Positions 1-32,419 of a stretch of 34,073 nucleotides of DNA are shown in pieces. The stretch lies in assembly GCA_964623485.1 (NCBI GenBank), contig CAZUTC010000002.1, forward strand, positions 1-34,073, written 5' to 3'. Below the pieces are notes generated by a model. That model did not search any database and was not told where the DNA came from. It saw only the letters and a program-made list of their open reading frames with translations. Both the position numbers and the translations under genes were made by a program. The stretch is from an uncultured bacterium (GTDB taxonomy: Bacteria > Hydrothermota > Tepidihabitantia > B3-TA06 > CAYQJV01). The stretch's first letter is position 1. Every line of letters begins with the position of its first letter.

Positions 1-1
1 C

Positions 2-1189
2 CATCTTTGCATATCAGGGGATGGGGTGTATGTGGTGTGGGAGGATTATAGGGCATGGAATTCAGAAGGTATTGGGATGGTATATATGCAAAGAGTTACA
101 CTTGACGGTGATATATGCTGGGATAAAGAAGGAATTAAGTTAAGTCTAATGAATGCGTGGCATGGTTCTCCCAAGATTCTTTCTGCCTTTCAAAATGGAG
201 CATGTATGTTTTGGAAGGAATATCCTGATAATTATATGATAGTAAGAGGACAGAGAGTTGACTCTTTGGGGAATTTTTTATGGGGTGATACAGGTATAGT
301 AATAATTTCGTATGGTTCTTCTATGAATTTATCAACGGGCAATTATCGGGATCCTTTTTATGTTGGATATGATGGAAAAGGGAATATAATTGTTTCTCAT
401 TTCATGCGTGCTCAGAAGGTAAATATGTTGGGAGAGTTATTGTGGGAGGGTGGATATGAGATAAAGGATTATCCTTATCGGTGTGCTGATGGAAATGGAG
501 GGTTATTTATTTTTACGAGCACTAATGACTTTTTTGAATATCCCAGGATAATGGTGGCGCATTATGATTCTTTATGCTTAGAGGATTGGGATAAGATGGT
601 ATGGCAGGGTGAGTATGCGGATTCAAATGATACGGAGATGTATATTTCATCCTCACTTACCGGGAGTGATAGGGCGCTTATAATAGGATGGGATTATTAC
701 AGGACGGGGAGTATATTGATGATGAAGATAGACAGGGATGGGAATTCTTTATGGGGTGGTGCTGTTGAGGTTTCAAAAGGAGGGGATTTTGTAAGGGATT
801 TGATGAATACAAGAGTTATAGGGTATAGAGGTGGGGGGATAATAGTGTGGCAGGAAAAGAGGTATGGAGATATGGATATATTTGCTGGTTATGTAGATTC
901 TACAGGTAATGTAGTGGGTATTGAAGAGAGGGAAGAGAAACCTGAATTTAAGATAGAAAGTTTAATAGTATCTGATTGGGTTAGGATAAAGTTTTTTAGA
1001 GGGATGGAGAATGTTAGGATTACTTTATATTCTATTGACGGAAGGAGGATAAGGGAGGTTTTTAGGGGTGGTGTGAGGTCTGGGGAGTTGAGGATTCCTT
1101 TATCTTCATTACCTTCTGGGGTGTATTTTTTAAATATATTTAATGGTGATAGAGAGGTTGTGAAGAAGGTGTTAAAGGTAAGGAGGTGA
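2..1189 (+). CDS. L-type secreted repeat (beta-propeller-like) protein with T9SS-type C-terminal sorting domain; 5' end outside window
   Basis: The frame is open from nt 2 (..ISGDGVYVVWEDYR), so the GTG at 26 is only the first in-window start. It carries recurring W-x-D-Y-R ... IY-x-Q-[KR]-V-D-x-x-G-x-x-x-W units. The last ~80 aa (about 941-1186: RITLYSIDGRRIREVF...SGVYFLNIF...KKVLKVRR) fit the T9SS/Por CTD pattern. Stop TGA is at 1187-1189. Confidence 0.8.
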   Translation, partial: HLCISGDGVYVVWEDYRAWNSEGIGMVYMQRVTLDGDICWDKEGIKLSLMNAWHGSPKILSAFQNGACMFWKEYPDNYMIVRGQRVDSLGNFLWGDTGIVIISYGSSMNLSTGNYRDPFYVGYDGKGNIIVSHFMRAQKVNMLGELLWEGGYEIKDYPYRCADGNGGLFIFTSTNDFFEYPRIMVAHYDSLCLEDWDKMVWQGEYADSNDTEMYISSSLTGSDRALIIGWDYYRTGSILMMKIDRDGNSLWGGAVEVSKGGDFVRDLMNTRVIGYRGGGIIVWQEKRYGDMDIFAGYVDSTGNVVGIEEREEKPEFKIESLIVSDWVRIKFFRGMENVRITLYSIDGRRIREVFRGGVRSGELRIPLSSLPSGVYFLNIFNGDREVVKKVLKVRR

Positions 1190-1192
1190 AAG

Positions 1193-1564
1193 ATGAGAGT
1201 GATAGTGATAATGTTTTCTGTGGTAGCCCTTTTATATGGAGGGCGTGTGAATCAAGAAACACAGGGGATGCAGTTATTTCCGAAGATAGCGAGGATAGGG
1301 AATGATGAATACATAGTTGTATGGGAGGACACAAGGAATGGGAGTGTGGAAATATATGCACAAAAGATAGATGGAAATGGGAATCCGCAATGGAATGAGG
1401 ATAAGGTGTTATCACAGGGAAGTGAGCCTTCCTATCAGGGTTTCATAGGTCATAGGATGGTATCAAGATTGGTAGGGAGTGGAAATCAGGGGATAGTAGG
1501 GTATGTGAATTATGCTGATGTAACAGAGACTTATAAAAAAAGGGGTATATGCCAGAGGGACTAA
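1193..1564 (+). CDS. S-type paralogue S1, N-terminal fragment (reading frame broken after an A7G4 run)
   Basis: ATG 1193 follows AGGAGG (1181-1186). The N-terminus is signal-like (MRVIVIMFSVVALLYG). It contains the repeat IVVWEDTRNGSVEIYAQKIDGNGNPQW. It is collinear with the N-termini of S2 (3454-4215) and S3 (5863-7422). The frame ends at TAA 1562-1564, just after A7 (1535-1541) and G4 (1542-1545). Confidence 0.7.
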   Translation: MRVIVIMFSVVALLYGGRVNQETQGMQLFPKIARIGNDEYIVVWEDTRNGSVEIYAQKIDGNGNPQWNEDKVLSQGSEPSYQGFIGHRMVSRLVGSGNQGIVGYVNYADVTETYKKRGICQRD

Positions 1565-1859
1565 TTGGGGGAATCCGGTTCTCATTACCTCAACAGTTAC
1601 AGAGGATTATGCTTTATGTGAAGATGGAAATGGTGGGGCAGTGTTTGTATGGGTGGCAAAGTCAGGGAGTGAATATTATTTGAAGGCGAGGCATTTGAAT
1701 GCTGATGGTGGGGATGTTTGGAATAATCCTGGGTGGGAAGACCCTCATGTCGCTGTGCTTCATACCGTCTCTAATGTGTTTGAACACCCGAAGGTGGTCC
1801 AAAAGCTTAACTTTTTAGGGAATAAATATAAAATTTTATTAGGTAGGAGGTCATTATGA
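1524..1859 (+). pseudogene. S1 C-terminal remainder in the +1 frame (frameshifted S-type paralogue)
   Basis: The frame of the 1641 ORF is open back to 1524. It continues the S-type homology (..KGVYAR..FVWVAKSGSEYYLKARHLNADGGDVW..HPKVVQKLNFLGNKYKILLGRRSL, the same tail as S2). Deleting one nt in 1535-1545 fuses 1193-1859 into one ~221-aa ORF. Confidence 0.6.
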
Positions 1860-1950
1860 GAAAAATCATTTTATTTTCTCTTTTGCTTTTATCTTTTGGG
1901 TTTAGTTGGGATAAAAATGGAACTCCATTGGTGTATGACCCAGGAGACCA
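1787..1950. repeat. Junction repeat copy 1 (S1 3' end, L1 upstream region, L1 signal peptide)
   Basis: It aligns without indels to 4143-4306, with 12 mismatches in 164 nt counted by hand. The flanks on both sides are diverged. Confidence 0.9.
1806..1834 (+). promoter_or_regulatory. Equivalent putative promoter for L1
   Basis: CTTAAC (1806-1811), N17, TAAAAT (1829-1834). The -35 is weaker than in the L2 copy. Confidence 0.25.
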
Positions 1951-3445
1951 GGAGTTAATTGATGTTAAATTAGTGAACGGTAGGAAGATTGCTATCCTAT
2001 ATTGGGATAGGGTTAAGTTAAATACATTTTTACAAATGGTAGATTTATCTGGAAGTGTAATATTTTCTGAGCCTGTGCAGGTTACCCAGACACTTGGGGC
2101 AGGTAATGAGATGGGGATAGACAAGGATGGCAATATATGGGTGGTGCTTACCAAGGCAGGAGATAAAGATGTGGATGTATGGGTGCAGAAGATAGAGGGT
2201 GGAAGTGGCGAGAGGTTATTTGGAGAGGAAGGAAAGGTGGTGTGCAGTGCGGATGGGAATCAGAGATACCCCCGGCTTGCCCTCTCCCCTGATGGGGGGT
2301 GTTGGGTGGTGTGGCAGGATTATAGGGAAGAAGGAACTTATTTCCCGGATATTTATTGTGCTTATGTCTCTTCTTCGGGCGAGGTGCGGTGGGAAAAGAA
2401 AATAAAGGAACAGTGTTCTCCTATTGGGATAATTCCTTCTAATGAAGGAAGTGCTATCTTGTTGGGGGGAAGATGGGTATGGAAAATAGATAGCACGGGT
2501 AATTTTAGATGGGATTCTTCTGGAGTAGAAATAGAGGGCATGTGGTATCCTATAGATATCATCTCTGACGGAGAGCATGGGGTTATTACTCTTTATGAGG
2601 ATGAAAATTACTGTTTGAGGGTTCAGAAAGTTAATGCCAGTGGTGAGATTTGCTGGGATTCGGGAGGAGTTTTATTGCAAAGCTGGGGAAATATCTCCTT
2701 ACAAATTATCCAAGATGATAAAAGATTTGGAATTTCTACAGATTACAATAAAGGGTGTTTGGTTTCCTCTTATAGGCACTCCTCTCCTGAAGATCACTGG
2801 GTATACCATGTGGACTCATCAGGTGTTAATTTATGGGAAGGAGGGGTGAAGGTTTGGGAATCCTCTGAATATGACGCCACAGGTTACAATCTTTATAGTG
2901 ATGTGACCTATGATTATGGGGGTGGTGGAGTGCTTACTTGGGATGATAAAAGTGATTCCTCTTTAGGTGATATATGGGCTGGAAGGGTGAATGCCTTGGG
3001 TGAGGTGGTATGGGTTAAGGAAGTATGTAAAGCTTGGGATGACCAAATAAATCCCAGGATAATCTCAGTGGACACAAATAAGTTTCTAATATACTGGGAA
3101 GATTATCGGGATGGAGATTGTGACATTTATGCTTCTCTTGTAGATTCTCTGGGTAATGTGCTGGGGATGAAGGAAGTATGTATGGATTTATTTTATCCTG
3201 AATTTGAGATAAGACTACTAAATAAAGGGGTTTTGATAAAGTATTGTATTGAGGGAGGAAACAGAGTTAAGATTTCTGTATACGACATTTTGGGTAGGAG
3301 GAGGAAAGAAGTGTTGAATCGGTGGATGGGAAAGGGGGTGCATAAGGTGGAAGTAGATTTTGGAGAGTTATCTTCTGGTGTGTATTTTGTGAGTTTAAAA
3401 GTAGGTCAAAAAGTTATTACAAAAAAGATTACATGGATAAAATAG
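1856..3445 (+). CDS. L-type secreted repeat protein L1 with T9SS-type CTD
   Basis: AGGAGG is at 1845-1850, and ATG 1856 overlaps the S1 stop (ATGA). Signal peptide MRKIILFSLLLLSFGFS. About 6-7 repeat units are present (CWVVWQDYREEGTYFPDIYCAYVSSSGEVRW; FLIYWEDYRDGDCDIYASLVDSLGNVLG). The CTD lies at about 3192-3442 (VKISVYDILGRRRKEVL...SSGVYFVSLKVGQKVITKKITWIK). Confidence 0.9.
   Translation: MRKIILFSLLLLSFGFSWDKNGTPLVYDPGDQELIDVKLVNGRKIAILYWDRVKLNTFLQMVDLSGSVIFSEPVQVTQTLGAGNEMGIDKDGNIWVVLTKAGDKDVDVWVQKIEGGSGERLFGEEGKVVCSADGNQRYPRLALSPDGGCWVVWQDYREEGTYFPDIYCAYVSSSGEVRWEKKIKEQCSPIGIIPSNEGSAILLGGRWVWKIDSTGNFRWDSSGVEIEGMWYPIDIISDGEHGVITLYEDENYCLRVQKVNASGEICWDSGGVLLQSWGNISLQIIQDDKRFGISTDYNKGCLVSSYRHSSPEDHWVYHVDSSGVNLWEGGVKVWESSEYDATGYNLYSDVTYDYGGGGVLTWDDKSDSSLGDIWAGRVNALGEVVWVKEVCKAWDDQINPRIISVDTNKFLIYWEDYRDGDCDIYASLVDSLGNVLGMKEVCMDLFYPEFEIRLLNKGVLIKYCIEGGNRVKISVYDILGRRRKEVLNRWMGKGVHKVEVDFGELSSGVYFVSLKVGQKVITKKITWIK
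2266..2314. repeat. GC-rich identity island in L1 (encodes YPRLALSPDGGCWVVW)
   Basis: The 49 nt have 1 mismatch against 4652-4700. GC is 33/49 in an AT-rich context. Confidence 0.9.
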
Positions 3446-3453
3446 GAGGAAGT

Positions 3454-4215
3454 ATGAGAGGAATAGTGATAATGTTTTTCCTTATTGTTGGCTTTATAGA
3501 TGCAGATTGGGATGTGAGCATAGCAAATGGGTATCAGTTGTTTCCTAAGGTTGTGTCAGATGGTGCTGGAGGAGTATTTGTGGGATTTTTGGATATGAGG
3601 CAGAGAGGAGGAGGACCTGAAACTTCACATGGATATGAGGTATATTTCCAGCACCTTGACGAGAATGGAAACAGATGGTCTCAGGATGTAATGGTATCTG
3701 AGCCTAAAGGTGGTGAAAAGCATGGGCATAGGTTGAATCATGTAATATGTGAAGGAGAAGAGGGAAAAGTAATTGTATGTTGGATAAATTATCATGATTT
3801 ATCCGGTTTCAGCGGTGATCCAAAAGGTATATATTGCCAGAAAGTAAATATAAGTGGGAATTTATGTTGGGATAGAGACGATAATGTAGGTAACGGAATA
3901 CAACCTATAAAGATAGTGGAAAACATTCTTTTCCCTCCCTCCATCTGCTCTGATGGGGATGGAGGATGTGTGGTGGTGGTAAGAGAAAAAAGATACAATG
4001 CTGGTCTGAAAAAGAATGAGTATAGGATAAGGGCATGGAGAATACTTTCGGATGGAACATTCGCAGATGATCCATACTACCCTGGTTGGAACGGAAAAAC
4101 AGGTATAGAGATTGTCTCCTGGACTACTGAGGTGTTGGGGGACCCGAAGGTGGTTCAAAAGTTTAACTTTTTAGGAAATAAATATAAAATTTTATCAGAT
4201 AGGAGGTCATTATGA
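3454..4215 (+). CDS. S-type paralogue S2: signal-peptide repeat protein without CTD
   Basis: AGGAGG is at 3444-3449, followed by ATG 3454. The ORF-track start 3433 overlaps the L1 stop and lacks an RBS. Signal peptide MRGIVIMFFLIVGF. It shares the FPPSICSDGDGGCVVVVREKRYNAGLKKNE block with S3. Its last 19 aa (QKFNFLGNKYKILSDRRSL) are read from the conserved L-gene upstream region. The stop overlaps the L2 ATG. Confidence 0.85.
   Translation: MRGIVIMFFLIVGFIDADWDVSIANGYQLFPKVVSDGAGGVFVGFLDMRQRGGGPETSHGYEVYFQHLDENGNRWSQDVMVSEPKGGEKHGHRLNHVICEGEEGKVIVCWINYHDLSGFSGDPKGIYCQKVNISGNLCWDRDDNVGNGIQPIKIVENILFPPSICSDGDGGCVVVVREKRYNAGLKKNEYRIRAWRILSDGTFADDPYYPGWNGKTGIEIVSWTTEVLGDPKVVQKFNFLGNKYKILSDRRSL
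3929..4035. repeat. Identity island in S2 (encodes FPPSICSDGDGGCVVVVREKRYNAGLKKNE)
   Basis: 3929-4021 is identical over 93 consecutive nt to 6320-6412. Two mismatches follow, then 12 more identical nt. Confidence 0.95.
4112..4154. repeat. Second S2/S3 conserved segment (VSWTTEVLGDPKVV)
   Basis: The 43 nt have 3 mismatches against 6482-6524. Its 3' end (cccgaaggtggt) is also the start of the S1/S2 junction repeat. Confidence 0.85.
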
Positions 4216-4306
4216 GAAGAATCATTTTATTTTCTCTTTTCCTTGTATCTTTTGGGTTTAGTTGGAATAAAAATGGGACCCCATTGGTGTGTGACCCAGG
4301 AGACCA
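4143..4306. repeat. Junction repeat copy 2 (S2 3' end, L2 upstream region, L2 signal peptide)
   Basis: This is the partner of 1787-1950, at an offset of 2356 nt. Confidence 0.9.
4162..4190 (+). promoter_or_regulatory. Putative sigma70-type promoter for L2 embedded in the S2 3' end
   Basis: TTTAAC (4162-4167), N17, TAAAAT (4185-4190). AGGAGG at 4201-4206 and ATG 4212 follow. It lies inside the conserved junction repeat. Confidence 0.35.
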
Positions 4307-5861
4307 AATAGAACCTATTGTATTAATGCCTCCGGGAAAAGACTATTTTTATCTGGTGTATGTGGATAAAGGAGAAGGAAGTATACAAGGTGAGAGAGTA
4401 TTGAGTGTAAAAGTAGACTTAAAGAGCGGTGATCTTCTATGGGATACTTCTATTAAGGCTTGTAACTCTGACAGTGGAATGTGGCAACCTGATGCCGTGG
4501 TAACAGAGAATGGGGATTTAGTAATTGCTTTTTTAGATGGGAGATTTGGTTATAATAAGTGTAGGCTTTACATCTCTAAAATTAGTGAAGATGGGGAATA
4601 TAAATGGGGAGCAGATGGAGTACCTGTCTGTACTTTGGATAATGTTGCGGCATACCCCCGGCTTGCCCTCTCCCCTGATGGAGGGTGTTGGGTGGTGTGG
4701 AGAGATTATAGACCTGATAGTAGTGGAATATTTGTAAATAGAATAAAAAAAGACGGTACCCCTGTCCAGGAAAATGGAAAATTTATTTTTAGATATGGTT
4801 TTTATCCTCTGGTGGTATCCTCTAATAAATGTGCAATAGTGCTGTGGAAAGGGGAAAAAGATGGCATATCCGGCATTTATGGACAAAGGTTTTATCCTGA
4901 TTTAACTCCCCAGTGGGATTCCGGAGGTAAGCTTATTATATCTTTTTATCAACCTTCTTTAATCCTTGAATCCGAGAGAGAATATCCTTATGCTATTTCT
5001 GACCTCAAAGGAGGCGCTATTATTTATTACGATGTGTATGATACTCTGAATTCGGAAAACCCTTATTATACTTTATTCCAAAGGGTAGATTCTCTGGGAA
5101 ACCTATTATGGAGTGAAATGCCCAAAACTGAAGATGCCTATTATATTGCTTCTGACGATAACTCAGGTGTATTTGTAGTTTGGGGACGCTTACGAAACTG
5201 GGATTATAATTATTCAGAAGTCTATGGCACACATATAGATTCCTCTTCCAATTTTTTATGGGAAAATCCCTTATTGATATGGAAGAGTGATTATTGGGAT
5301 ACCACGGAGTATTGGGTATATCCCACAGCTACTCATGATATGCATGGAGGGGCAATAATTACATGGATTGAGTCTACTGAGGATGGAGATGAGTTATGGG
5401 GATGCAGAGTAGATTCTTCAGGAGATGTTAAATGGAGTAAAATATTAATAGATGACTATTCTGAAAAAAAATATCCCTTGGTGAAGTCGGTGAGTGATAG
5501 TTTATTCCTCATTATTTGGGAGGACTATAGAAGTGAGGATTGTGATATTTATGGCTTAGTGGTTACTCTTAATGGAGAGGTGGTGGGGATAAAAGAGAGT
5601 AAAGAGAGCAAAGATTTATTAAGTTTCAATTCCTTGATTACCAATGGCATATTAAAGATAAAAGGTGATTTAGGAAGGGGTATAAGAATAGAGTTATATG
5701 ATGTTTTGGGCAGGAAGGTAAGGTCTTTTGAGGGGAGGTTCAGAGGTGGTGAGGTATTAATTAATCTTGAGAGGTTTTGTCTCTCGGATGGAGTGTATTT
5801 TATTGTTTTGCAAGATAAAAGTTATGTAAAGGTAGGGAAGATAATAAAAATAAGGAGGTAG
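4212..5861 (+). CDS. L-type secreted repeat protein L2 with T9SS-type CTD
   Basis: AGGAGG is at 4201-4206, followed by ATG 4212. The signal peptide MRRIILFSLFLVSFGFS is nearly identical to that of L1. It has YPRLALSPDGGCWVVWRDYR and FLIIWEDYRSEDCDIYGLVVTLNGEVVG units. The CTD lies at about 5616-5858 (IRIELYDVLGRKVRSF...DGVYFIVLQDKSYVKVGKIIKIRR). Confidence 0.9.
   Translation: MRRIILFSLFLVSFGFSWNKNGTPLVCDPGDQIEPIVLMPPGKDYFYLVYVDKGEGSIQGERVLSVKVDLKSGDLLWDTSIKACNSDSGMWQPDAVVTENGDLVIAFLDGRFGYNKCRLYISKISEDGEYKWGADGVPVCTLDNVAAYPRLALSPDGGCWVVWRDYRPDSSGIFVNRIKKDGTPVQENGKFIFRYGFYPLVVSSNKCAIVLWKGEKDGISGIYGQRFYPDLTPQWDSGGKLIISFYQPSLILESEREYPYAISDLKGGAIIYYDVYDTLNSENPYYTLFQRVDSLGNLLWSEMPKTEDAYYIASDDNSGVFVVWGRLRNWDYNYSEVYGTHIDSSSNFLWENPLLIWKSDYWDTTEYWVYPTATHDMHGGAIITWIESTEDGDELWGCRVDSSGDVKWSKILIDDYSEKKYPLVKSVSDSLFLIIWEDYRSEDCDIYGLVVTLNGEVVGIKESKESKDLLSFNSLITNGILKIKGDLGRGIRIELYDVLGRKVRSFEGRFRGGEVLINLERFCLSDGVYFIVLQDKSYVKVGKIIKIRR
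4652..4700. repeat. GC-rich identity island in L2
   Basis: This is the partner of 2266-2314, at an offset of 2386 nt. Confidence 0.9.
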
Positions 5862-5862
5862 T

Positions 5863-7422
5863 ATGAGGTATTTAGGGGTATTAGTGGTGTTTATTTCCTT
5901 TGGGGTTGCGGATGTAGATGTGTGTAATGCTTCTGGTTTACAATTATTTCCTGAAATTGTTAAATCTGGTTCAAGGGTGTATGCGTGCTGGATAGATAAT
6001 AGGGACGGTCCTTACGAAGTGTATGTACAGAAGATAACCGAGGATTTGGAGATGGAGTGGGGTAATGGAATAAGAGTATCAAGGACTCCTCATGATTCTT
6101 CTGACCATGCGTTATGGAATGGGCATAGACTGCATCAGAAGGTAATTTCTTCAATAAAGGGTTTGGATGAGGGAATAATAGTTACATGGGTGAATTACCA
6201 TAGGCTTAAAGGAGGTAAATATAGTCCTGGGATTTACCTGATAAGGATAACATCTTCAGGTATTTTTGACCCTGATTGGCCTGGTAAGGGCGATTCAACA
6301 CTTTTTATTTCTTCCTCCATTTTCCCTCCCTCCATCTGCTCTGATGGGGATGGAGGATGTGTGGTGGTGGTAAGAGAAAAAAGATACAATGCTGGTCTGA
6401 AAAAGAATGAGTGCAGGATAAGGGCAAAGAAATTGGATTCTAAAGGAAGAGATTTTCCTCCTTATGGATGGACAGTAGATGTTGTCTCCTGGACTACTGA
6501 GGTTCTGGGAGACCCGAAGGTGGTAAAGGTAGGGAATAAAGTAATGGTTTGTTGGTGCAGTGTGGATGCAATATACCAATCCGAAGGTTCTGATGAGTAC
6601 ACACGCTTTTATGCAAGAACAATCTCTCTTTCCTCTGGAGTTATGAGTAATCCTTTAACCATTGAAAAAAAACATAATAAACCTGATGAAAATGGCGTAG
6701 TGAAATATTACTGGGATATCCTTGATTTTGATTTAAAAGCAAGGGATAATGGAACAGTATATGTAGGAGCAAGATGGGCATATAGACAAAAACGAACAGA
6801 CTTGACATATACTACCAAGGCAAAAGGATTAATGGTGAAACTCTATAAAATATCTCTTGGAAGCAATAATGTTGAAAAGAAGCTGGTAAGTGGATATAAC
6901 ATAAACTATGATGAAGAAATAATTGACAATGCGGTTGTCATGCCTATAGAACAGATGCCCATAAGACCTGCTGTGCTTGCATTAAGAGATGAAGGCGGAG
7001 TAATTGTTCACCCAGAAGGAAGAAATTCACCCTCCAATAATAGTGATACCACCAGAACATGGGGTATAAAGGTTGTTTATTTTGAAGAAAATTTAAACCT
7101 CTATTCTCCTTACTATTATGGATGGCATGCCCATCTTCCGGATATAATAGGAATCGGGAACAAAAGTATACTGGTATACAGTGAGCATAACTCTTCTGAC
7201 TTTTCAGGAGATATGGATGCTAAGATAAAGGTATTGAAACTTGATGAGGATGGAAATGATTCCCTTGAATGGCACACCTCCTCCATCACCCCTAAGAGTT
7301 CACCAAAAATAATAAAATCTGATGATTCTCACTGTATCATTGTATGGGATGAAAAGAATAGCTCCACTGAATGGGATATAAAAGCAGTAAGGCTAAACAT
7401 AGAGGATTTATGGTCTGAGTAA
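5863..7422 (+). CDS. S-type paralogue S3, long form (519 aa, no CTD)
   Basis: AGGAGG is at 5853-5858, followed by ATG 5863. Signal peptide MRYLGVLVVFISFG. The first ~230 aa are collinear with S2, including a 93-nt identical block. After ..TTEVLGDPKVV it continues in frame (KVGNKVMVCW...) for ~290 more aa instead of ending. Confidence 0.9.
   Translation: MRYLGVLVVFISFGVADVDVCNASGLQLFPEIVKSGSRVYACWIDNRDGPYEVYVQKITEDLEMEWGNGIRVSRTPHDSSDHALWNGHRLHQKVISSIKGLDEGIIVTWVNYHRLKGGKYSPGIYLIRITSSGIFDPDWPGKGDSTLFISSSIFPPSICSDGDGGCVVVVREKRYNAGLKKNECRIRAKKLDSKGRDFPPYGWTVDVVSWTTEVLGDPKVVKVGNKVMVCWCSVDAIYQSEGSDEYTRFYARTISLSSGVMSNPLTIEKKHNKPDENGVVKYYWDILDFDLKARDNGTVYVGARWAYRQKRTDLTYTTKAKGLMVKLYKISLGSNNVEKKLVSGYNINYDEEIIDNAVVMPIEQMPIRPAVLALRDEGGVIVHPEGRNSPSNNSDTTRTWGIKVVYFEENLNLYSPYYYGWHAHLPDIIGIGNKSILVYSEHNSSDFSGDMDAKIKVLKLDEDGNDSLEWHTSSITPKSSPKIIKSDDSHCIIVWDEKNSSTEWDIKAVRLNIEDLWSE
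6320..6426. repeat. Identity island in S3
   Basis: This is the partner of 3929-4035, at an offset of 2391 nt. Confidence 0.95.
6482..6524. repeat. Second S2/S3 conserved segment, S3 copy
   Basis: This is the partner of 4112-4154. Confidence 0.85.
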
Positions 7423-7432
7423 GGAGGTGAAT

Positions 7433-8359
7433 ATGTTTGTTTTTTTGTATTTATTATATCCTTCTTTCTATCCGATAGGATATTTCTCACATGTGACGGA
7501 TATAAAAATGTTAACCGAAAATGGGGAAAGAGCAATCATGTTTGTAGAAGCAGGAGATTGGAGTAATCCTGCAGACTCGCTTTATCTTTTTTATATTTAT
7601 GAAGATAACCATCCCTCTTCATATCTGATGCTGAAGAATCCGTTATATAAAAGGGGTTATTATGAACCTGAAATCTGGAAGTATTACGATGTAATGGATA
7701 TAAGCGATAATGAAGTGGGGTTCATTACTTCTGAGGAAGATGGACTGTATTTAAGGAGATATGATTTTTCAGGAAATGAATTGTATAGTAAAAGATTAGT
7801 TGAAGATGATATAGAAAACACAAAGATAAGAGGATTCAAGGCGGTCTGGTTTGAGGAAATTAATGAGTTCATGCTTATATGGTTTTCAGAAGATACTTTA
7901 AAATTGATGCTTTATAATAAGAATGGTGTTCCGAAATTTTCAAAGGTAATTTCTTTTTCTGGAATAGAGACTCAGGGAGTCCTGAGTGCAAATGCCTTGC
8001 TTCTGGATGATACTTTTTATATCTTCTGGCATCAAGCAGGATTTAACGCAGTATACTCTCAGAAGATGAATATGAATGGTAAGTTTCTTCTTTCTTCCCC
8101 AGTATGGGTGGTAAAAGGCTGGAATACAGGAGAATTTAGGCTCACAATGAATAAAGAAAAAAATATCATACTTATTTCAACTTATGAAAGAACTCAATGC
8201 ACCAATAGAAGTTTAGAGAGAATATGGGGTCCCGGGGGATTGAGAGAAGGGACCCTTATAGGTTTTACCAGAAATGAAGATGGAATTTATCTTCTCCGGA
8301 TGGAATACGAAAAGAATCTCATCCCCAAGGGGTGGATTATAGGGAAAGAGCTTATTTGA
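7433..8359 (+). CDS. Divergent repeat-family protein X, N-terminal part (likely 5' portion of a frameshifted L-type gene)
   Basis: AAGGAGG is at 7421-7427, followed by ATG 7433. The N-terminus is hydrophobic (MFVFLYLLYPSF). Degenerate family units are present (LYLRRYDFSGNELYSKRLV; AVYSQKMNMNGKFLL). It has no CTD of its own. It ends at TGA 8357-8359, inside a 28-nt overlap with the next ORF. Confidence 0.7.
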   Translation: MFVFLYLLYPSFYPIGYFSHVTDIKMLTENGERAIMFVEAGDWSNPADSLYLFYIYEDNHPSSYLMLKNPLYKRGYYEPEIWKYYDVMDISDNEVGFITSEEDGLYLRRYDFSGNELYSKRLVEDDIENTKIRGFKAVWFEEINEFMLIWFSEDTLKLMLYNKNGVPKFSKVISFSGIETQGVLSANALLLDDTFYIFWHQAGFNAVYSQKMNMNGKFLLSSPVWVVKGWNTGEFRLTMNKEKNIILISTYERTQCTNRSLERIWGPGGLREGTLIGFTRNEDGIYLLRMEYEKNLIPKGWIIGKELI

Positions 8360-8988
8360 TGAAAGCGGATATATCCAATGGAGAGGTTATGGATACTGTG
8401 GAGGTTTTTTATACTTCCCATGGATATAATTATCCATTGGGAGATTGGGGAGAGGAACTGAAGAACATTCACTGGCTTTTTAATTCGCAAAAGGACCTTT
8501 GCTTTTTTGTAACCATCTATGATTGGGAAGAGAAAGATTATACTCCCTATTACAAGATATATCTTACAGAGCAAGATTCCCTTCTTTATACTGGATTGGG
8601 GAAACCAGTATTTACTGAAAAACCAAAGAAAAATATAAGCATTTTAGCAATAGGAGAAGATGGTTCGGGAGGAGCAGACATGTTACTCCGCAGTGGAGAT
8701 TCTCTCTTTTATTCTCACATGAATAAAAATGAATTAGAAGGTATAAAAGAAGAAAGTAAATCTCTCTGTTGGGAATCCATTGAAGTATTAGGAGATAAGA
8801 TTATTGTAAGAGGCATTGGAGCTTACAGAGTAAAGATATACGATGCTTCGGGTAGGATGGTTTACGAAAATAGGTTAATGATAAGAAGAAGAAAAAAGAT
8901 AAATGTTGATTTTCCTCCAGGGATCTATTTTATTGTTGTGGAAGGTAAAGATAGAGTTTTCAAACACAAACTGTTAAATATAAAATAG
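8332..8988 (+). CDS. Repeat-family protein X, C-terminal part carrying the T9SS-type CTD
   Basis: This frame is open from 8278. The ORF-track start is a GTG with no RBS and no signal peptide. It begins inside a repeat unit (VDYRERAYLMKADISNGEV). The CTD lies at about 8770-8985 (YRVKIYDASGRMVYENRL...PGIYFIVVEGKDRVFKHKLLNIK). A CTD without an N-terminal signal peptide argues that it belongs with 7433-8359. Confidence 0.65.
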   Translation: MDYRERAYLMKADISNGEVMDTVEVFYTSHGYNYPLGDWGEELKNIHWLFNSQKDLCFFVTIYDWEEKDYTPYYKIYLTEQDSLLYTGLGKPVFTEKPKKNISILAIGEDGSGGADMLLRSGDSLFYSHMNKNELEGIKEESKSLCWESIEVLGDKIIVRGIGAYRVKIYDASGRMVYENRLMIRRRKKINVDFPPGIYFIVVEGKDRVFKHKLLNIK

Positions 8989-8997
8989 GAGGTTAAA

Positions 8998-11900
8998 ATG
9001 AAGACCATTAAAATCTTATTTTTATTGTGTCTTTTAATCGGTATTCCACTTATTGCTGATGGATCGGCTGGAAAGCTCCCGGAGATATTTCCAATGGGTT
9101 TCTGGGGGATAAAACCACCCAGTGGGAATACCGCACTTATATATTTCCGAAGTGGAGCAACTCTTGGACTTTATCACTGGGAATGCAATGACTTTGCACA
9201 GTTTGCAAAAGAAGATAAAGAGAAAAGAAAACTTTCAGTATATAGCTTAAAGTACTGGTCAGATAATAATTATGTGGGAGCATTTTATACTGCTCCAATC
9301 ACACTCAGTGATAAATATCCAGTACAGTATGACCCGGATAGTATAGAGTTCTGGAGTTGTCTTGCTGAAATAGTTGTGGATAGCTTTAAAACAGAAATCT
9401 CAGAAAACTCTCCCTTAGTGTATAATGTGAAGATAACGAATGCAGATCATCACATTGCAAGATGGAGCCCGTTATTTTGGGAAGGAATAAGAAAAATAAA
9501 TACACTCTTTCACTTGAGTTCTATAAAGACATTTTGTTATCCAGGAACTTTTGATACCAATTTTCTTAACAATAAAGAAGGTAAAGGGTTTGATGCTGCT
9601 ACAACCATAAACACTGGATGTTATTTTTACTGGTATGTTTCATTGAATGACCCTGATTATTCTTACCAAATACAACGAGCCCTTGGAAGTCTGGTAAATG
9701 AAGAGTGGAAGAAATATCAATATTATGAAAACCAAAAAAAGCCCACCCCGGTGAGTATTTTCTATCGCAATACTTCAAAAGGGAGAAAAGTCAATACAGA
9801 GTACTGGCCAGAGCTTGGGATCCAATGGAAAGAAAATGATTTAAGAACCATTACAGAACCGGAACTCAGGGTAATTACCTCTTTGGCGGTAACTTATGGA
9901 GTTAAAGGAATTACTTTTTATTCCTGGTGTTCTGGATGGGATGAACGTAATGGAATTGTGGATACAGAAGGTAAGCCTTATATGCCTCAGGACTCGGCGG
10001 ATGCAATTTTTGGAGAAAATGTAGTTACCGCAAACGAAAATAACTCTGTATGGCTGTATTTTTACCATGTTGCCAGTGAACTTGCAGATTATGGAAGAGC
10101 ATTTAGAGAATTAACATGGGATACCGCATTTTCCTATCCTCTATGGGATGATGGTGAAAATATAGCAACTATTCCACCTGAGAAATTGATTGAAGGGGTA
10201 GAAGGTTGGAAAAAAGGAAATCCAGATAAGCCTTTACAGTATGCAGAGATAGGGCTGTTTAAAGATAATCACCACAGAGATTATATAATGGTTGTTAATA
10301 GACATTGCCTACACGATGACACATTTTATATAACTTGCTATACTAAGGAAACTGAGCCACAACCTCCGGAGGCTCCTCATAAGTTCTTTGTTGATATGAA
10401 GAACTTTAAATACAAGGAGAAACAGTATTATAATGGTAAACCAGGATTCCGTAGTGAATACCAGCCAGGAGAGGGAAAACTCTGGGCAGTTGTAACAGAT
10501 GCAATCCCCCCTCCAAATAAACCATGGGGAGTATGGGCAATAATAATATTAGAACATAATGGCACAAAATATACCATATACACTCCCTGGGATAGACCGG
10601 ACTGGCTGGATGAAATAGATAAAAATGCAGAGGTTACTTATACCATTAAAATTGCTGTAAGAGGAGAACTATTCAGACACGGCCCAAGGGCAAAAGATGT
10701 GGACTCTGTGGTTGTGGAGTTGTGGGATATTGAAGGAGCAAATGCTAAACTTATAGATAATACATGGAAGAAAGAAAAAGTTTATGAAAATTATGTGCCT
10801 GAAAATGTAGAATGGGCTGATGATGAATGCTACCTCTTCACATACATCCCATCCCAAATCAATTCAAAGAAATTTGGACATTCCTATAATGCATATATAA
10901 AAGTAAAAGCATACAACTCATTTGGTAGATTGATAGATGAAAAAGTTTTCCCATTTACCCCCTGGTGGTTTGTCCCAGGAAATACAAAACACACATGTCA
11001 GAGAAACGATGTAGACCCTGATGGTAAATGGTATATCGCATATACTGAAGAAACAGAGGATACTCCCCGGGTGCATCTTTTCACCTTGGGAAACAATGAG
11101 ACCATCTCTTCTGGTAAGTTTCCAACACTTGCAGTAAAAGGAGATACCATAGGAGTTGCATTTCTATCAAAGAACTCTGATACAATATACTATACCTATA
11201 AGATAGACTCCACATGGTCATCTCCTTATCCTATTGTGAGTTCCTTGCCCCATTCACTCTCTGTTCCAAGAACAGGAGTGTATAAAGACACTGTTTATCT
11301 TTCCTACCAGAAGAGAACGGATTTAACATCTTTTTCTAAAATCCTTTCCGAACCAGGGGATAACACAGGGATATACCTTGAGCGCTTTCCCATTACAAAA
11401 CCTGAGGAAAGGGTTAGCCAAGAGGTTTCAACATGGTACGAGGATATCTCTGATATAGAGCCAAGAGGAGCAGGAATAGGGGTGGATGCCTTTGGGAATG
11501 TGTATATGGGATGGAGAGAGAATGATCTGTTAAGATTTGGAGTTATATATCCCTCCGGGGATAAAAGGATATACGGAGGAAACTCTCAACCATTTGATGA
11601 CCCTATAACCTGTATGCTTTCACCTGGTGGAGGAGGTTCTGGCTTTGTCCCTGGAATACTTTACACTTCCCAAGATAAGCTCATCCTTTCCCTGTTCCAT
11701 CCAGCAGACACAACTGAGATTTTAAGAGATACCCTTTATGAGGGAAATGAAATAAGAAGTGCAAAATCAGTGGGTGGAGGAGTTGTGTTTGATGAGGCAG
11801 GATGCATTAAGTTTCTTAAATGGGATGCAGTGAACAATGGTATATCCGAGGTCACCGAACTTACCCAGGCTCAAAAATCCTCTTATCCATCTATTGATGG

Positions 11901-12786
11901 AGTCTCTTATATCAAGGATAACACAATTCACAGGGATTATTATCTTATATGGACCGAGGATGTCACCGGAGCCTCTTTCTTGCCCGATTCATTGAAGGAG
12001 GATACCCTTTCTATGGTTGCAACCGAGATACTATCATATTCTGGGGATGGTCATGAGGGTTTGATGCCTTATGTGTATCTGAGGGGAGGTTTTGAACCAC
12101 CTTCAATATTTACCCTACACCGGGATAGTTTTGCAGTATACGGGGATGAGATATACGAAAAGGTGGATATAGGATACGACAGTCTGGTGTATGAGTTTCC
12201 TGGCTCAAGACAAAGGATAAGGATGTTTTTTGAGTTTTATACTCCAGATGAAACCTATGAGACATCCGAGGTAAATCTCAAAATAAATGGACTAAATCTT
12301 GCAAGTTTCACCATCCAACCCTCTGAGGTGGAAAGGTATGAGTTCTGGATTCCTGATAGTTTATCTCTGGATACTGTCAGGGTGTTTTTAAAGAGGCTTT
12401 CTGGAGATTATATACCCTTATCCAGAATGATAGTGGAGAGTTTTGAGATAAGGGATGATGGAGCGAGTTATAGGGGTTATTCTGGGATAAAAGAGGTTAG
12501 AGATTATTCTACATTCTCATTCTATTCCTTAACAAATGTTATATCCAAGGGAAATGCTCTGTTTTTCTATACATTGCCTTATGGCACACAGGTTAAGGTG
12601 AAGGTTTATGATGTCGGGGGTAGGTTGTTAAGGGTTCTGGAGGATGGATATCAGGAAAAGGGAAGGTATAAGATGGAGTGGGACTTAAGGGATGCCTCCC
12701 AGAGAAAAGCTCCAAAAGGTGTATACTTTGTAAGATTTGAAGCAGGAGGTTATAAAAGAACCGAGAAGATTTTAATTACCGAGTAG
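8998..12786 (+). CDS. Large (1262 aa) secreted multidomain protein with T9SS-type CTD; enzymatic or binding function unknown
   Basis: RBS TAGGAGG precedes ATG 8998. Signal peptide MKTIKILFLLCLLIGIPLIADG. The body is a long non-repetitive N-terminal region plus a propeller-like middle. The CTD lies at about 12520-12783 (VKVKVYDVGGRLLRVLEDG...KGVYFVRFEAGGYKRTEKILITE). Confidence 0.9.
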   Translation: MKTIKILFLLCLLIGIPLIADGSAGKLPEIFPMGFWGIKPPSGNTALIYFRSGATLGLYHWECNDFAQFAKEDKEKRKLSVYSLKYWSDNNYVGAFYTAPITLSDKYPVQYDPDSIEFWSCLAEIVVDSFKTEISENSPLVYNVKITNADHHIARWSPLFWEGIRKINTLFHLSSIKTFCYPGTFDTNFLNNKEGKGFDAATTINTGCYFYWYVSLNDPDYSYQIQRALGSLVNEEWKKYQYYENQKKPTPVSIFYRNTSKGRKVNTEYWPELGIQWKENDLRTITEPELRVITSLAVTYGVKGITFYSWCSGWDERNGIVDTEGKPYMPQDSADAIFGENVVTANENNSVWLYFYHVASELADYGRAFRELTWDTAFSYPLWDDGENIATIPPEKLIEGVEGWKKGNPDKPLQYAEIGLFKDNHHRDYIMVVNRHCLHDDTFYITCYTKETEPQPPEAPHKFFVDMKNFKYKEKQYYNGKPGFRSEYQPGEGKLWAVVTDAIPPPNKPWGVWAIIILEHNGTKYTIYTPWDRPDWLDEIDKNAEVTYTIKIAVRGELFRHGPRAKDVDSVVVELWDIEGANAKLIDNTWKKEKVYENYVPENVEWADDECYLFTYIPSQINSKKFGHSYNAYIKVKAYNSFGRLIDEKVFPFTPWWFVPGNTKHTCQRNDVDPDGKWYIAYTEETEDTPRVHLFTLGNNETISSGKFPTLAVKGDTIGVAFLSKNSDTIYYTYKIDSTWSSPYPIVSSLPHSLSVPRTGVYKDTVYLSYQKRTDLTSFSKILSEPGDNTGIYLERFPITKPEERVSQEVSTWYEDISDIEPRGAGIGVDAFGNVYMGWRENDLLRFGVIYPSGDKRIYGGNSQPFDDPITCMLSPGGGGSGFVPGILYTSQDKLILSLFHPADTTEILRDTLYEGNEIRSAKSVGGGVVFDEAGCIKFLKWDAVNNGISEVTELTQAQKSSYPSIDGVSYIKDNTIHRDYYLIWTEDVTGASFLPDSLKEDTLSMVATEILSYSGDGHEGLMPYVYLRGGFEPPSIFTLHRDSFAVYGDEIYEKVDIGYDSLVYEFPGSRQRIRMFFEFYTPDETYETSEVNLKINGLNLASFTIQPSEVERYEFWIPDSLSLDTVRVFLKRLSGDYIPLSRMIVESFEIRDDGASYRGYSGIKEVRDYSTFSFYSLTNVISKGNALFFYTLPYGTQVKVKVYDVGGRLLRVLEDGYQEKGRYKMEWDLRDASQRKAPKGVYFVRFEAGGYKRTEKILITE

Positions 12787-30041: not shown

Positions 30042-30716
30042 TTAGTAAAGACAACCTGCTGCTCCCGCTCCAAAAGCTCCTAAGGTTCCAACTCCCAAGA
30101 AAAACAGACCTTCAAGGGAAAAACCAAATATAACCTTTTTTGTTTCATGGTTTAAGGGGATTCCCACTTCTATCAATAGCCCGGTTGGTAAAAAAAGCTG
30201 ACTCTCTATACTTCCCTTCTCCTCTTTGTAAACATGAAACCCAGCGTAAAGGGTTATATCTGTAAATGGTTTACTCTCGTTTCGGTAGTATGAGTCAAAA
30301 ATCATTCGTGGATGATAAAAAATTTTTAATCCAGAATAAAAGGCAGATGTTTCCGTAACATCTTTTATAAAAGAAAGGGAGATTTCAGGAGATACAAGAA
30401 TATCGGGGAATGTAAGATGTATCTCTGTCTCAGCATAAAGCATGGGAATAAATCTCGTACCCACATAAAAACCTGCCGAAGAGTTTTGGGAGAGCTGACC
30501 CTTCAATCCAATTCTAAACCTATTATTCACCCCTATATCCAGCTTTGCTCCTCCGGAGAAGGAAATTCTGCTTTCCCCAATACTATCTCCTTTTATTTTC
30601 TCTGCGTAAGAGAAGTATGCAGGAACAGTAACATAGTTTATGAGGTCTATATCTCCTGGGATTATACTTCTTGTATTACAGAAAAGCCCGTAAGTTGTGA
30701 ATAATAAATATATCAT
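30042..30716 (-). CDS. Hypothetical 224-aa membrane / beta-barrel-like protein (paralogue A2 of 31745-32419)
   Basis: It is collinear with A1: MIY..F..YG.F.N...GDI...Y.T.PAY.SY.EKI, SFY.G...FY.PRM, L.AGF, and P.GL..E.G...K..IFG..LEG. Alternating hydrophobic strands are present, and the C-terminal tail is Gly/Ala-rich. The ATG overlaps the upstream stop by 4 nt. Confidence 0.75.
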   Translation of the reverse strand: MIYLLFTTYGLFCNTRSIIPGDIDLINYVTVPAYFSYAEKIKGDSIGESRISFSGGAKLDIGVNNRFRIGLKGQLSQNSSAGFYVGTRFIPMLYAETEIHLTFPDILVSPEISLSFIKDVTETSAFYSGLKIFYHPRMIFDSYYRNESKPFTDITLYAGFHVYKEEKGSIESQLFLPTGLLIEVGIPLNHETKKVIFGFSLEGLFFLGVGTLGAFGAGAAGCLY

Positions 30717-31246
30717 TTTCCCTCCTTTCTCTTAACTATTACATCTACATAACAAGGAAGTATATCCGGAATGGAATAACTCCTCCATTCCCATGGCCAG
30801 ATCACATCGTCTATTATCATTGATAAAAGCCGTATTTTAAATACTGCCTTTCCATAAAAATCTTGGGGAGCTGTATAATAACTGTCCATTTGAAGTACTA
30901 TTAAAGAATCAATAAAAATTTCAAGGGATGTCTCTGTTGTATCTTGGGGAGGAATTTCTACATACCATTCCTCCCACTCATACCATACACCATATATACT
31001 ATTTCCTGTAATTATTTCAATATCTGCCCCTTCTGTCTCCCATCCTTCATCTCCGGTATTTATAATTCTCAAAGGAATACTTAAAGAGTTTTCTACAAGA
31101 TATGAAAAATCCCATGCTGTATCACCTTTTGTTGGGATCTCAAAATATACTGGATTCTCAATGGGTTCAACAATTATAACCCACTTTTCGGAACTTCCAC
31201 ACCCTGAAAAAATGACCATTAAAATAACCCAAACTATCCTTTTCAT
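30713..31246 (-). CDS. Hypothetical lipoprotein
   Basis: I prefer ATG 31246 (MKRIVWVILMVIFSGCGSS, a lipobox-like FSGC), which overlaps the upstream stop as ATGA. The ORF-track start 31318 would lie inside the upstream gene. The mature part is Trp/Glu-rich and looks like a beta-sandwich. Confidence 0.7.
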   Translation of the reverse strand: MKRIVWVILMVIFSGCGSSEKWVIIVEPIENPVYFEIPTKGDTAWDFSYLVENSLSIPLRIINTGDEGWETEGADIEIITGNSIYGVWYEWEEWYVEIPPQDTTETSLEIFIDSLIVLQMDSYYTAPQDFYGKAVFKIRLLSMIIDDVIWPWEWRSYSIPDILPCYVDVIVKRKEGK

Positions 31247-31737
31247 TTCCTTATCCTCAATTTTAAAACATTTTGCTCTTCTAACTCCTCTTCTCCTTCC
31301 TTTTGATATACATAACAATTTATTTTAATCCCTCCGGATGTTTTTACTTCAAAGTTATTGTCATAATCCAGTTTTTTAGCATCGTGATTGGTAATAGAAA
31401 TCTGTATCCTTTGGCTTTCCTTCTCAAAAGGAGCCAAAGCAATGGGAGGATGAAAAGAGAAGTTTTTAACAACTTCATAAGCAGGGGTGAAAAACTCCCC
31501 ATAAAAAATGGAAACGTGGGTGTTACCTCTATTCTCAAATTTAAGGGTCACCGTTAAAGTATCCGCAGAGTAAATTGAATCGGGAGAATCCCATCCATTA
31601 GAGGAGTCACTATCCGGGTCGGGAATATGAAATTCAAGAACAGAGGGAGAGGAGGTAACCAATATCTCGGTTTTATATTCCACTTTGTATTCACAGGTAT
31701 TAAATAACAGGGGAATAATCAAAACCATTTTTTTCAT
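31243..31737 (-). CDS. Hypothetical secreted / lipoprotein-like protein
   Basis: ATG 31737 (MKKMVLIIPLLFNTCEYK) follows GAGGTG, and that SD overlaps the A1 stop. The Cys after the hydrophobic segment is a non-canonical lipobox. Confidence 0.7.
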   Translation of the reverse strand: MKKMVLIIPLLFNTCEYKVEYKTEILVTSSPSVLEFHIPDPDSDSSNGWDSPDSIYSADTLTVTLKFENRGNTHVSIFYGEFFTPAYEVVKNFSFHPPIALAPFEKESQRIQISITNHDAKKLDYDNNFEVKTSGGIKINCYVYQKEGEEELEEQNVLKLRIRK

Positions 31738-31744
31738 ACCCACC

Positions 31745-32419
31745 TCACATCAAAAAGAGAAAAACGGGATAAAGCACTCCCTCCAATGCAATGCCAAATA
31801 TTATATTTTTATGCTTCTGGGTGGCAGAGAAGCCTGTCTCCAGCATGAGTCCCCGGGGTATAAAGTAATCTAAAAATTTCTTTCTTTGTAGATTGAACCT
31901 CATATAAAATCCAGCACACAAAAGAATCTCTAATTTTGAACTTATAATTTTTTCTGAAAGAAAGTATCCGTTGTATTCTTTATACCCTATTCCAAGGTAC
32001 ATTCTTGGATAGTAAAATCCTCTAATTCCTCCATAGAAGGAGGTATTTTTTGAGATATCAATCCCTGTTCCTAAGAAAGCCTGGGCTGTGAACAACAGAT
32101 TCTCAAAGGTAAATCCTGAGGATAGATTTAATAACCCTTTTAATTTTTCTCCTTTAACAACCCAAATCCCTGCTCCTCCCCAGGGATTCATTGAGAACAC
32201 AGTCTCAATTCCCATCCCCAGATAATCTGAAAGAGAAACAGTAACCTTTACTCCTGCTTCTCTGTTCAACATGGTTATCCCCTCTGCATCTGCCATTATC
32301 TTCTCCTCATAGGATAGATAGGCAGGGTAGGTTCCATACACAATAATACCTATATCTCCTTTCTGAGGAAGTTTTGGATTAATAAATACTCCATAATAGA
32401 GAAAAATAATATAAATCAT
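31745..32419 (-). CDS. Hypothetical 224-aa membrane / beta-barrel-like protein (paralogue A1 of 30042-30716)
   Basis: AAGGAGG (32424-32430) precedes ATG 32419. It has the same length and conserved blocks as A2, and is the first gene of a tightly overlapped four-gene set. Confidence 0.75.
   Translation of the reverse strand: MIYIIFLYYGVFINPKLPQKGDIGIIVYGTYPAYLSYEEKIMADAEGITMLNREAGVKVTVSLSDYLGMGIETVFSMNPWGGAGIWVVKGEKLKGLLNLSSGFTFENLLFTAQAFLGTGIDISKNTSFYGGIRGFYYPRMYLGIGYKEYNGYFLSEKIISSKLEILLCAGFYMRFNLQRKKFLDYFIPRGLMLETGFSATQKHKNIIFGIALEGVLYPVFLFLM

Follow-up and report, generated by a model that had tools for sequence, protein, structure and literature searches.

At the left end of a 34,073-nucleotide (nt) stretch of contig CAZUTC010000002.1 (hereafter the window, i.e., the whole stretch of DNA that was analyzed), two kinds of genes alternate in a tandem array: L genes, whose products carry a C-terminal domain (CTD) of the kind found on type IX secretion system (T9SS) cargo, and S genes, whose products carry none. 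What do these genes encode, and does their alternation mean that they work together? Combining sequence comparisons with structure models, we infer with moderate confidence that the L proteins would be variable binding propellers exported by the T9SS, that S would be their co-translated, Sec-exported partner, and that both belong to a recombining multigene array. An earlier note on this DNA, made from its letters alone, had already proposed the pairing of S and L.

According to the open reading frame (ORF) map of the window, positions 1-12786 hold plus-strand genes only, separated by spacers of at most 10 nt or joined by 4-nt overlaps, so that the L and S genes are likely co-transcribed and translationally coupled. 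Their order is L0 (partial), S1, L1, S2, L2, S3, L3, and then the unrelated X (Table 1), with an AGGAGG Shine-Dalgarno sequence ahead of every bona fide start in the array. The ATGA stop/start overlaps reported earlier for S1/L1 and S2/L2 were confirmed at 1856-1859 and 4212-4215. A single gene made of S and L joined by frameshift or read-through was rejected, since a separate Shine-Dalgarno sequence precedes L and its product starts with a putative signal peptide. Also correct was the view that the array runs on leftwards of the window: the full-length L0 is present as database protein P0004 (531 amino acids, aa), and a related contig from Guaymas Basin (locus L047) reads L(-1)-S0-L0. The array is amplified in tandem to at least L(-1)-S0-L0-S1-L1-S2-L2-S3-L3. 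A scan of the locus for promoters and terminators was uninformative, with counts equal to the shuffled expectation.

The repeat and its predicted fold

A repeat of ~45-55 aa is common to L0, S1, L1, S2, and L2 and also occurs in S3, in its N-terminal half. With a hidden Markov model (HMM) iterated on the window proteins, L2 yielded eight units, L1 seven and a degenerate initial one, and the partial L0 no fewer than six; S2 has three units, S3 three plus weak ones, S1 one or two, L3 one weak unit, and X none. Six of the seven genes that had been said to share the repeat do so. L3 is marginal, even as its restored product of 518 aa (one blade with an independent E-value of 9e-4; CTD, 5e-6). The repeat is not a chance pattern, because L1 as a query retrieves 100 database relatives, with E-values down to 1e-70. 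The alignment of these relatives contains eight regular units of the form 'Q..P.IvSDG.GGAIIaW.D.R.G..DIYAQRin..G...W..nGv.ic', followed by the CTD. Within it, the residues DG-GG, W-D-R, DIY-Q-R, and G..W are conserved in every blade and, to judge from this recurrence, they are repeated structural positions rather than a single site.

Whether the repeat belongs to a named family was a point on which the earlier note had to be corrected. No Pfam model covers it: at E≤1, all array proteins gave CTD matches only, and no BNR/Asp-box, SBBP, PD40, Kelch, FG-GAP, or WD40 match. However, the family is not unclassified, because canonical relatives pass the NCBIfam model TIGR04275 ('beta_prop_Msarc'; curated cut-off, 85 bits) and the window proteins match it weakly at the same motif. 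Specifically, P0124, P0143, and P0123 scored 112.7, 111.1, and 92.5 bits, respectively. L0 (15.8 bits), S1 (18.4), L1 (17.1), and L2 (17.0) all remained below the cut-off, and their matches fall at profile positions 18-35, exactly on W-x-D-x-R...DIY. A profile built from S matches three proteins that pass the model (P0123, P0124, and P0143), with E-values of 1e-92 to 1e-113. L1 in turn matches P0009 and P0021 with E-values of 1e-33 to 1e-43, and the TIGR04275 scores of these two are 65-77 bits. By these profile comparisons, the window repeat is a diverged branch of the named, widespread, and functionally uncharacterized TIGR04275 repeat.

When the S profile was run exhaustively in HMMER, 13,275 cluster representatives (50% identity clusters) matched at E≤1e-3, 7,388 of them also at E≤1e-10, and many of the matches were giant multi-repeat proteins. 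The source names of repeat relatives include Bacteroidota, Ignavibacteria, Latescibacteria, Margulisbacteria, Armatimonadetes, Anaerolineales, and Thorarchaeota. A literature search on the repeat motif DIYAQR and on TIGR04275 found no paper mentioning either. Pfam matches on the canonical relatives (DUF1491, Mtf2_C, DUF4114, and PD40 at 0.03) were rejected as spurious, being sub-threshold or summed over repeats with no significant single stretch. As a separate observation, P0123, P0124, P0143, P0206, and P0021 exceeded the whole-protein gathering score of DUF1491 (PF07372; 25 bits) purely from summed sub-threshold repeats, and TIGR04275-type proteins may in this way come to be wrongly annotated as DUF1491.

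The beta-propeller fold suspected from the periodicity was supported at the level of structure models. With the alignment of relatives as input, AlphaFold2 returned an all-beta model of L1 (mean pLDDT 85, pTM 0.76) in which 30 strands of at least three residues form eight groups over residues 23-430 (~8 x 4 strands), an N-terminal strand is available for closing the last blade, and a seven-strand CTD sandwich occupies residues 450-527. The N-termini were of low confidence in the models of both L1 and S2. Foldseek searches of L1 against the PDB returned propellers only (CylK, sialidases, PorZ, PHL lectin, PL42, GH145, and DPP-IV). The L proteins are therefore predicted to be roughly eight-bladed beta-propellers, with blade count and ring closure read from the model, and the 6-7 repeats originally assigned to them are replaced by eight blades. 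Since TM-scores were at most 0.45 and identities 9-15%, and the matches were generic to propellers, no specific structural relative was identified and no specific function can be transferred. A profile search of PDB sequences matched solved structures through the CTD alone (8glk_D and 8glj_D among the chains).

These structural matches bear on an alternative in which the L proteins would be secreted carbohydrate-active enzymes (sialidase, glycoside hydrolase [GH], or polysaccharide lyase [PL]-like) with which a fermentative WOR-3 bacterium attacks polymers, S being a periplasmic paralogue that acts on the imported products. The matches of L1 include sialidases, GH145 BT3686, PL42 rhamnose-glucuronate lyase, and PL25 ulvan lyase, those of S2 include sialidases, GH117, and GH43, and the next gene, X, encodes another large CTD cargo. 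We nevertheless regard this alternative as unlikely: the structural similarity is that of propellers in general, no Pfam or NCBIfam match to any GH, PL, or BNR family was obtained at E≤1, and outside the CTD no solved structure was matched by sequence. Furthermore, the conserved residues recur in each blade instead of marking one site, and the paralogues are only ~30% identical and most variable on one face.

Secretion signals were assigned from the two ends of the proteins. The T9SS-type CTDs recognized earlier on the L proteins score above the 23-bit cut-off of TIGR04183 (type A sorting domain) in L0 (32.5 bits), L1 (33.8), L2 (29.7), and the L3 tail (29.0), as does the CTD of X (27.7), and Pfam PF18962 agrees. 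No TIGR04183 or other CTD match was found in S1, S2, or S3, as had been claimed for the S-type genes; one of them, S3, is of full length (519 aa) and not short. Read by eye, the N-termini suggest Sec-like signal peptides on the array proteins and X: L1 and L2 start with MRK or MRR followed by 12-15 hydrophobic residues, the S proteins have A-x-A-like sites, and L3 is atypical.

The S proteins and the S/L module

The AlphaFold2 model of S2 (pLDDT 72, pTM 0.72) comprises three complete blades and strands A and B of a fourth, and its Foldseek search gave weak partial-propeller matches only. Orthologues of S were identified in P0121 (58% identical to S2), P0270 (48%), P0271 (45%), P0275 (31%), and P0280 (28%). 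Common to all of them are a putative signal peptide with an A-x-A-like site and four motifs (LQLFP, GHRL, N[YH]H, and CSDG.GGC), and all stop shortly after '(N/D)PKVVKAG', which corresponds to the first strand of blade 4. The S protein stops after three blades and one or two strands. True S orthologues, as recognized by these shared features, are rare but real. When 185,579 species genomes were scanned with the alignment of S proteins, no relative was found, the lineage being apparently unrepresented there or missed by the peptide patterns, and a scan of JGI metagenomes with the same alignment found three distant L-type loci only and no arrays. S proteins share 30-45% identity with one another and have only weak, partial BLAST matches to L proteins (E=1e-5 to 1e-6), and on this measure S and L fall into distinct clades. 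Over its N-terminal 230 residues, S3 corresponds to S; it then continues as a full-length propeller-like protein and ends in a terminal blade (IIVWDEKNSSTEWDIKAVRLN).

The pairing of S and L was borne out by their adjacency in homologous loci. In an 87-kb JGI contig (L002), an L gene (548 aa, 35% identical to L1) is followed, with an ATGA overlap, by an S gene whose product is 48% identical to S2 (E=7e-69). In L047, from Guaymas Basin sediment, the C-terminus of an L protein with its CTD is followed by S (P0121) and then by an L0-like N-terminus, and both L048, from a hydrothermal vent metagenome, and L049 have the order L-S-L with ATGA or GTGA overlaps at both junctions. Because L-S or L-S-L with 4-nt overlaps recurs in these four other metagenome loci, at S identities of 28-58%, the S/L pair is, as far as gene order tells, a conserved two-gene module. 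A natural case of S without L was found in L045, which derives from a different organism in the same European Nucleotide Archive (ENA) sample as the second assembly of our locus (L001, see below). There, S (P0271) is intact in the 5900-6838 region, and the upstream L is reduced to its last ~65 codons (a CTD remnant) after ~430 nt without an ORF.

Might the S genes instead be non-functional debris, i.e., remnants of N-terminal parts that unequal recombination left behind while an L-like array duplicated, so that the alternation has no functional meaning? S1 is frameshifted, S1 and S2 resemble S3 cut off after 'DPKVV', the locus is visibly recombining, and the L partner is deleted in L045. Yet S orthologues are intact in at least six loci from different samples, at 28-58% identity, and they have kept their own putative signal peptide, the S-specific motifs, the same truncation point, and the overlapping stop and start codons. 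Together with the separate Shine-Dalgarno sequences of the S copies in the window and the position of S in a clade apart from L, this makes the debris explanation improbable.

A further observation comes from a 2.3-Mb contig of a distant organism (L046), in which a 274-aa CTD-less canonical-repeat protein is encoded beside a 502-aa repeat protein at 4683-10860, and an 803-aa CTD protein with eight repeats on the opposite strand. The clustering of CTD-less and CTD-bearing members may extend beyond the S/L module of the WOR-3 type.

Frame breaks and recombination in the array

The earlier note had described seven consecutive plus-strand genes. Their tight packing over 9 kb was confirmed, but S1 and L3 are frameshifted and not single ORFs. 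S1 contains a single +1 frame change at its A7 run, and deleting one A restores an S protein. In L3, a -1 frame change lies inside a C4A2G4 run (CCCCAAGGGG). The repeat motif (GVDYRERAYLMKADISNGEV) extends upstream of ATG 8359 in the downstream frame. A separate gene, L3b, starting at this ATG was rejected, as it would have no Shine-Dalgarno sequence and no signal peptide, and the motif continues upstream in its frame. The second assembly, L001, which was assembled independently and is 99.6% identical to the window, has the same ORF splits and zero DNA differences in S1 or L3. Systematic homopolymer error is unlikely, because ~50 other runs of at least seven A or T are present in the window and its long housekeeping ORFs (alaS, recA, glmS, glmM, and purD) are uninterrupted. 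The two copies are inactivated by single-base indels in homopolymer runs and, since the two assemblies agree and the housekeeping ORFs read through, the breaks are probably real.

It might be argued that these frameshifts are regulatory, with phase-variable tracts (A7G4; C4A2G4) or transcriptional or ribosomal slippage switching array members as in contingency loci. Such a role would agree with both breaks lying exactly in homopolymer runs, with their confinement to the surface-protein array while long housekeeping ORFs stay intact despite the many A/T runs, and with gene conversion in the array. On the other hand, for slipped-strand switching to be efficient, 4-7 nt is a short tract length, the same off state is present in both assemblies, and the high divergence of L3 is consistent with decay. 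We therefore consider regulatory switching improbable.

The L paralogues are only 28-33% identical to one another, and several short patches of near-identical DNA connect copies of the array (Table 1). In addition to those listed, S2 and S3 have a common patch at 4106-4154 / 6476-6524, and their cross-matches between the window and L001 assemblies are 97-98% identical. All 41 differences between the two assemblies are confined to two tracts, namely the S2 tail (12) and X (29). Because the S2-tail variant between the assemblies reproduces S3/P0121 sequence, these comparisons indicate that gene conversion between array copies is ongoing. The junction between S tail and L head was also considered as a conserved RNA or DNA element. 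This was rejected, as its 90-95% identity is limited to the window lineage and is missing in L048 and L049, which points to homogenization instead of a deep nucleic-acid element.

Two side observations concern mosaicism. When L047 (1425-1574) is compared with P0004 (residues 1-50), the L0 alleles share their first ~21 residues and then diverge sharply, and the S tail beside the L0 allele in L047 is identical to the L001 S2 allele and a few residues off that of the window. Seen in these alleles, there is strain-level mosaicism in L between L047 and the window lineage. Within X, the 29 assembly differences, including a 3-nt indel, cluster at 10506-11110, which suggests a recombination tract from an unseen paralogue.

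Table 1. Features of the array and of the adjacent gene X (positions refer to the window)
Feature	Position	Strand	Evidence or remark
L0, 3' part (395/531 codons): propeller blades and type A CTD (~983-1186)	2..1189	+	ORF; TIGR04183 32.5 bits; at least 6 repeat units
S1: short paralogue without CTD, broken by one +1 frameshift	1193..1859	+	Three ORF fragments; restored product 221 aa, 34% identical to S2
A7 homopolymer followed by G4; S1 frame break	1535..1541	+	
S-tail/L-head junction patch, first copy	1771..1950	+	90-95% DNA identity to 4127-4306; rest of 2.4-kb unit 30-50%
L1, 529 aa: putative signal peptide, predicted 8-bladed propeller (residues ~23-430), CTD (~450-527)	1856..3445	+	Start overlaps S1 stop
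60-nt patch in L1 (YPRLALSPDGGCWVVWQDYR)	2266..2325	+	93% identical to 4652-4711 in L2
S2, 253 aa: putative signal peptide, 3 predicted blades and 2 strands of a fourth, no CTD	3454..4215	+	Shine-Dalgarno sequence at 3454 ATG
129-nt patch in S2	3929..4057	+	91% identical to 6320-6448 in S3
S2-tail variant tract	3966..4165	+	12/41 assembly differences; variant matches S3- and P0121-type sequence
S-tail/L-head junction patch, second copy	4127..4306	+	
L2, 549 aa: putative signal peptide, 8 repeat units, CTD (~5643-5858)	4212..5861	+	Start overlaps S2 stop
S3, 519 aa: S-type N-terminal 230 aa extended into full-length propeller-like protein, terminal blade, no CTD	5863..7422	+	
L3: highly diverged L-like gene with -1 frameshift; type A CTD in C-terminal part (~8815-8985)	7433..8988	+	
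CCCCAAGGGG run; L3 frame change	8323..8332	+	One extra G restores ...IPKGVDYRERAYLMKADISNGEV...
X, 1262 aa, type A CTD, outside the repeat family	8998..12786	+	Probably same transcription unit

Proposed function, host, and likeness to known systems

In the mechanism that we propose, L would be carried over the outer membrane by the T9SS and then displayed on, or released from, the cell surface. The variable B-C/D-A loop face of its propeller would bind an external ligand, in an adhesin or lectin-like role, and the set of paralogues would constitute a repertoire of binding specificities. Specificity is placed on this face because its loops are the least conserved (mean pairwise identity of 0.18 for B-C and 0.15 for D-A, versus 0.41 for A-B and 0.36 for C-D). 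S would stay in the periplasm, or associate with L, as the cognate partner. Because S cannot close a ring alone, it is probably an oligomer or docked to L. Two S chains could provide 2 x (3 blades + 1 composite blade) = 8 blades, which equals the number in L; otherwise, S could be docked to L. A stricter version of this scheme, with S and L as the two obligate components of one surface system and the 3.5-blade S either dimerizing into an 8-blade pseudo-propeller or docking on its cognate L, and crossing the outer membrane by hitch-hiking on the L CTD, seems to us quite unlikely. If true, the T9SS cargo would here have two components, one of them a dedicated paralogous partner that is coupled to the other in translation, and this in a phylum for which we found no T9SS studies.

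Several points weigh against the reading of L as exported binding propellers with S as their partner in a recombining array. No T9SS machinery gene was found within the 34-kb window, to which the search was confined, and the literature retrieved places the T9SS in Bacteroidota (in one review, the FCB superphylum) without mention of WOR-3. In most propeller families, too, the B-C and D-A loops are the more variable ones. As to the partnership, S3 shows that the S module can also begin a complete propeller, and S is not strictly dependent on a neighboring L, because L045 keeps S beside an L remnant only. Finally, the S1 and L3 frameshifts, being identical in two assemblies, appear fixed and not switching.

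The host is probably an uncultured WOR-3 bacterium: the best matches of its AlaRS among species genomes were one metagenome-assembled genome (MAG) at 75% and many candidate division WOR-3 MAGs at ~50%. Related contigs came from Guaymas Basin and hydrothermal vent samples. For X, neither a family match apart from its CTD nor a solved structure of matching sequence was found. Beyond the array and X, the window is of housekeeping character (alaS, recA, glmS, glmM, purD, and others). Near its right end, two minus-strand genes (30042-30716 and 31745-32419) encode 224-aa paralogues (31% identity, E=1e-30) that have hydrophobic N-termini and no Pfam family, and they interleave with small family-less ORFs (30713-31743). 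This suggests a second small cluster of paralogous envelope proteins. At the other end, positions 1-6000 have a coding-strand GC skew of +0.29 to +0.54 per kb, versus about ±0.1-0.3 in the rest of the window. The skew is probably compositional and due to propeller genes rich in Gly, Trp, Asp, Glu, and Val.

These results place a confidently modelled fold on a very large and functionally blank repeat family (~13,000 clusters, no Pfam model, and no solved structure). They also define a testable two-gene module, consisting of a predicted 8-blade CTD propeller and a 3.5-blade CTD-less paralogue, which could reveal how T9SS cargo work with partners. The locus suggests that uncultured WOR-3 bacteria of hydrothermal sediments invest in a recombining repertoire of surface propellers, a hint on how they come into contact with substrates or cells, and that T9SS-type cargo is prominent outside Bacteroidota.

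How does the array compare with systems already described? With TIGR04275 proteins, it shares the tandem core W-x-D-x-R-(loop)-D-[IV]-Y-x-Q-[KR] at a period of ~45-55 aa and the 7-8 tandem units per L protein, modelled as propeller blades. It differs from them in that the window proteins reach 16-18 bits versus a cut-off of 85, and in that the truncated S form and the S/L module lie outside the model. Like the type A CTD cargo of the T9SS (TIGR04183/PF18962) in Porphyromonas gingivalis and Flavobacterium johnsoniae, the L proteins have a C-terminal beta-sandwich of ~70-80 aa scoring above the cut-off and, putatively, an N-terminal Sec signal. The host here, however, is assigned to WOR-3, where T9SS machinery, with cleavage and anchoring by PorU, is putative. 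The propeller-plus-CTD architecture of L1 recalls PorZ, a T9SS component with two propellers and a CTD (PDB 5m11; Foldseek E=8.5e-9), but the TM-score is 0.15-0.20, L has one propeller instead of two, and the PorZ model NF052228 (T9SS_PorZ) did not match the window proteins.

Contingency-type surface-protein families such as pilE/pilS, vlsE, and tprK are diversified by gene conversion. The array resembles them in its tandem paralogues, its short near-identical conversion tracts in diverged genes, and its homopolymer frameshifts. In contrast to these families, it has no expression site or silent cassettes, each copy having its own Shine-Dalgarno sequence and putative signal peptide; moreover, the host is a free-living sediment bacterium, and the two assemblies show S1 and L3 in the same state. 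A parallel to the S/L pair in gene arrangement is given by type B CTD cargo, which, according to PMC9143113, is encoded beside cognate PorP-like anchoring partners. There too a cargo gene lies next to a dedicated partner gene, although the CTD in the window is of type A and S, as the partner, is not PorP-like by sequence but a cargo paralogue in truncated form. On the one hand, then, the TIGR04275-type propeller and the type A CTD cargo are of already known kinds. On the other hand, what is original in this locus is its conserved S/L module, together with the recombination in its array.

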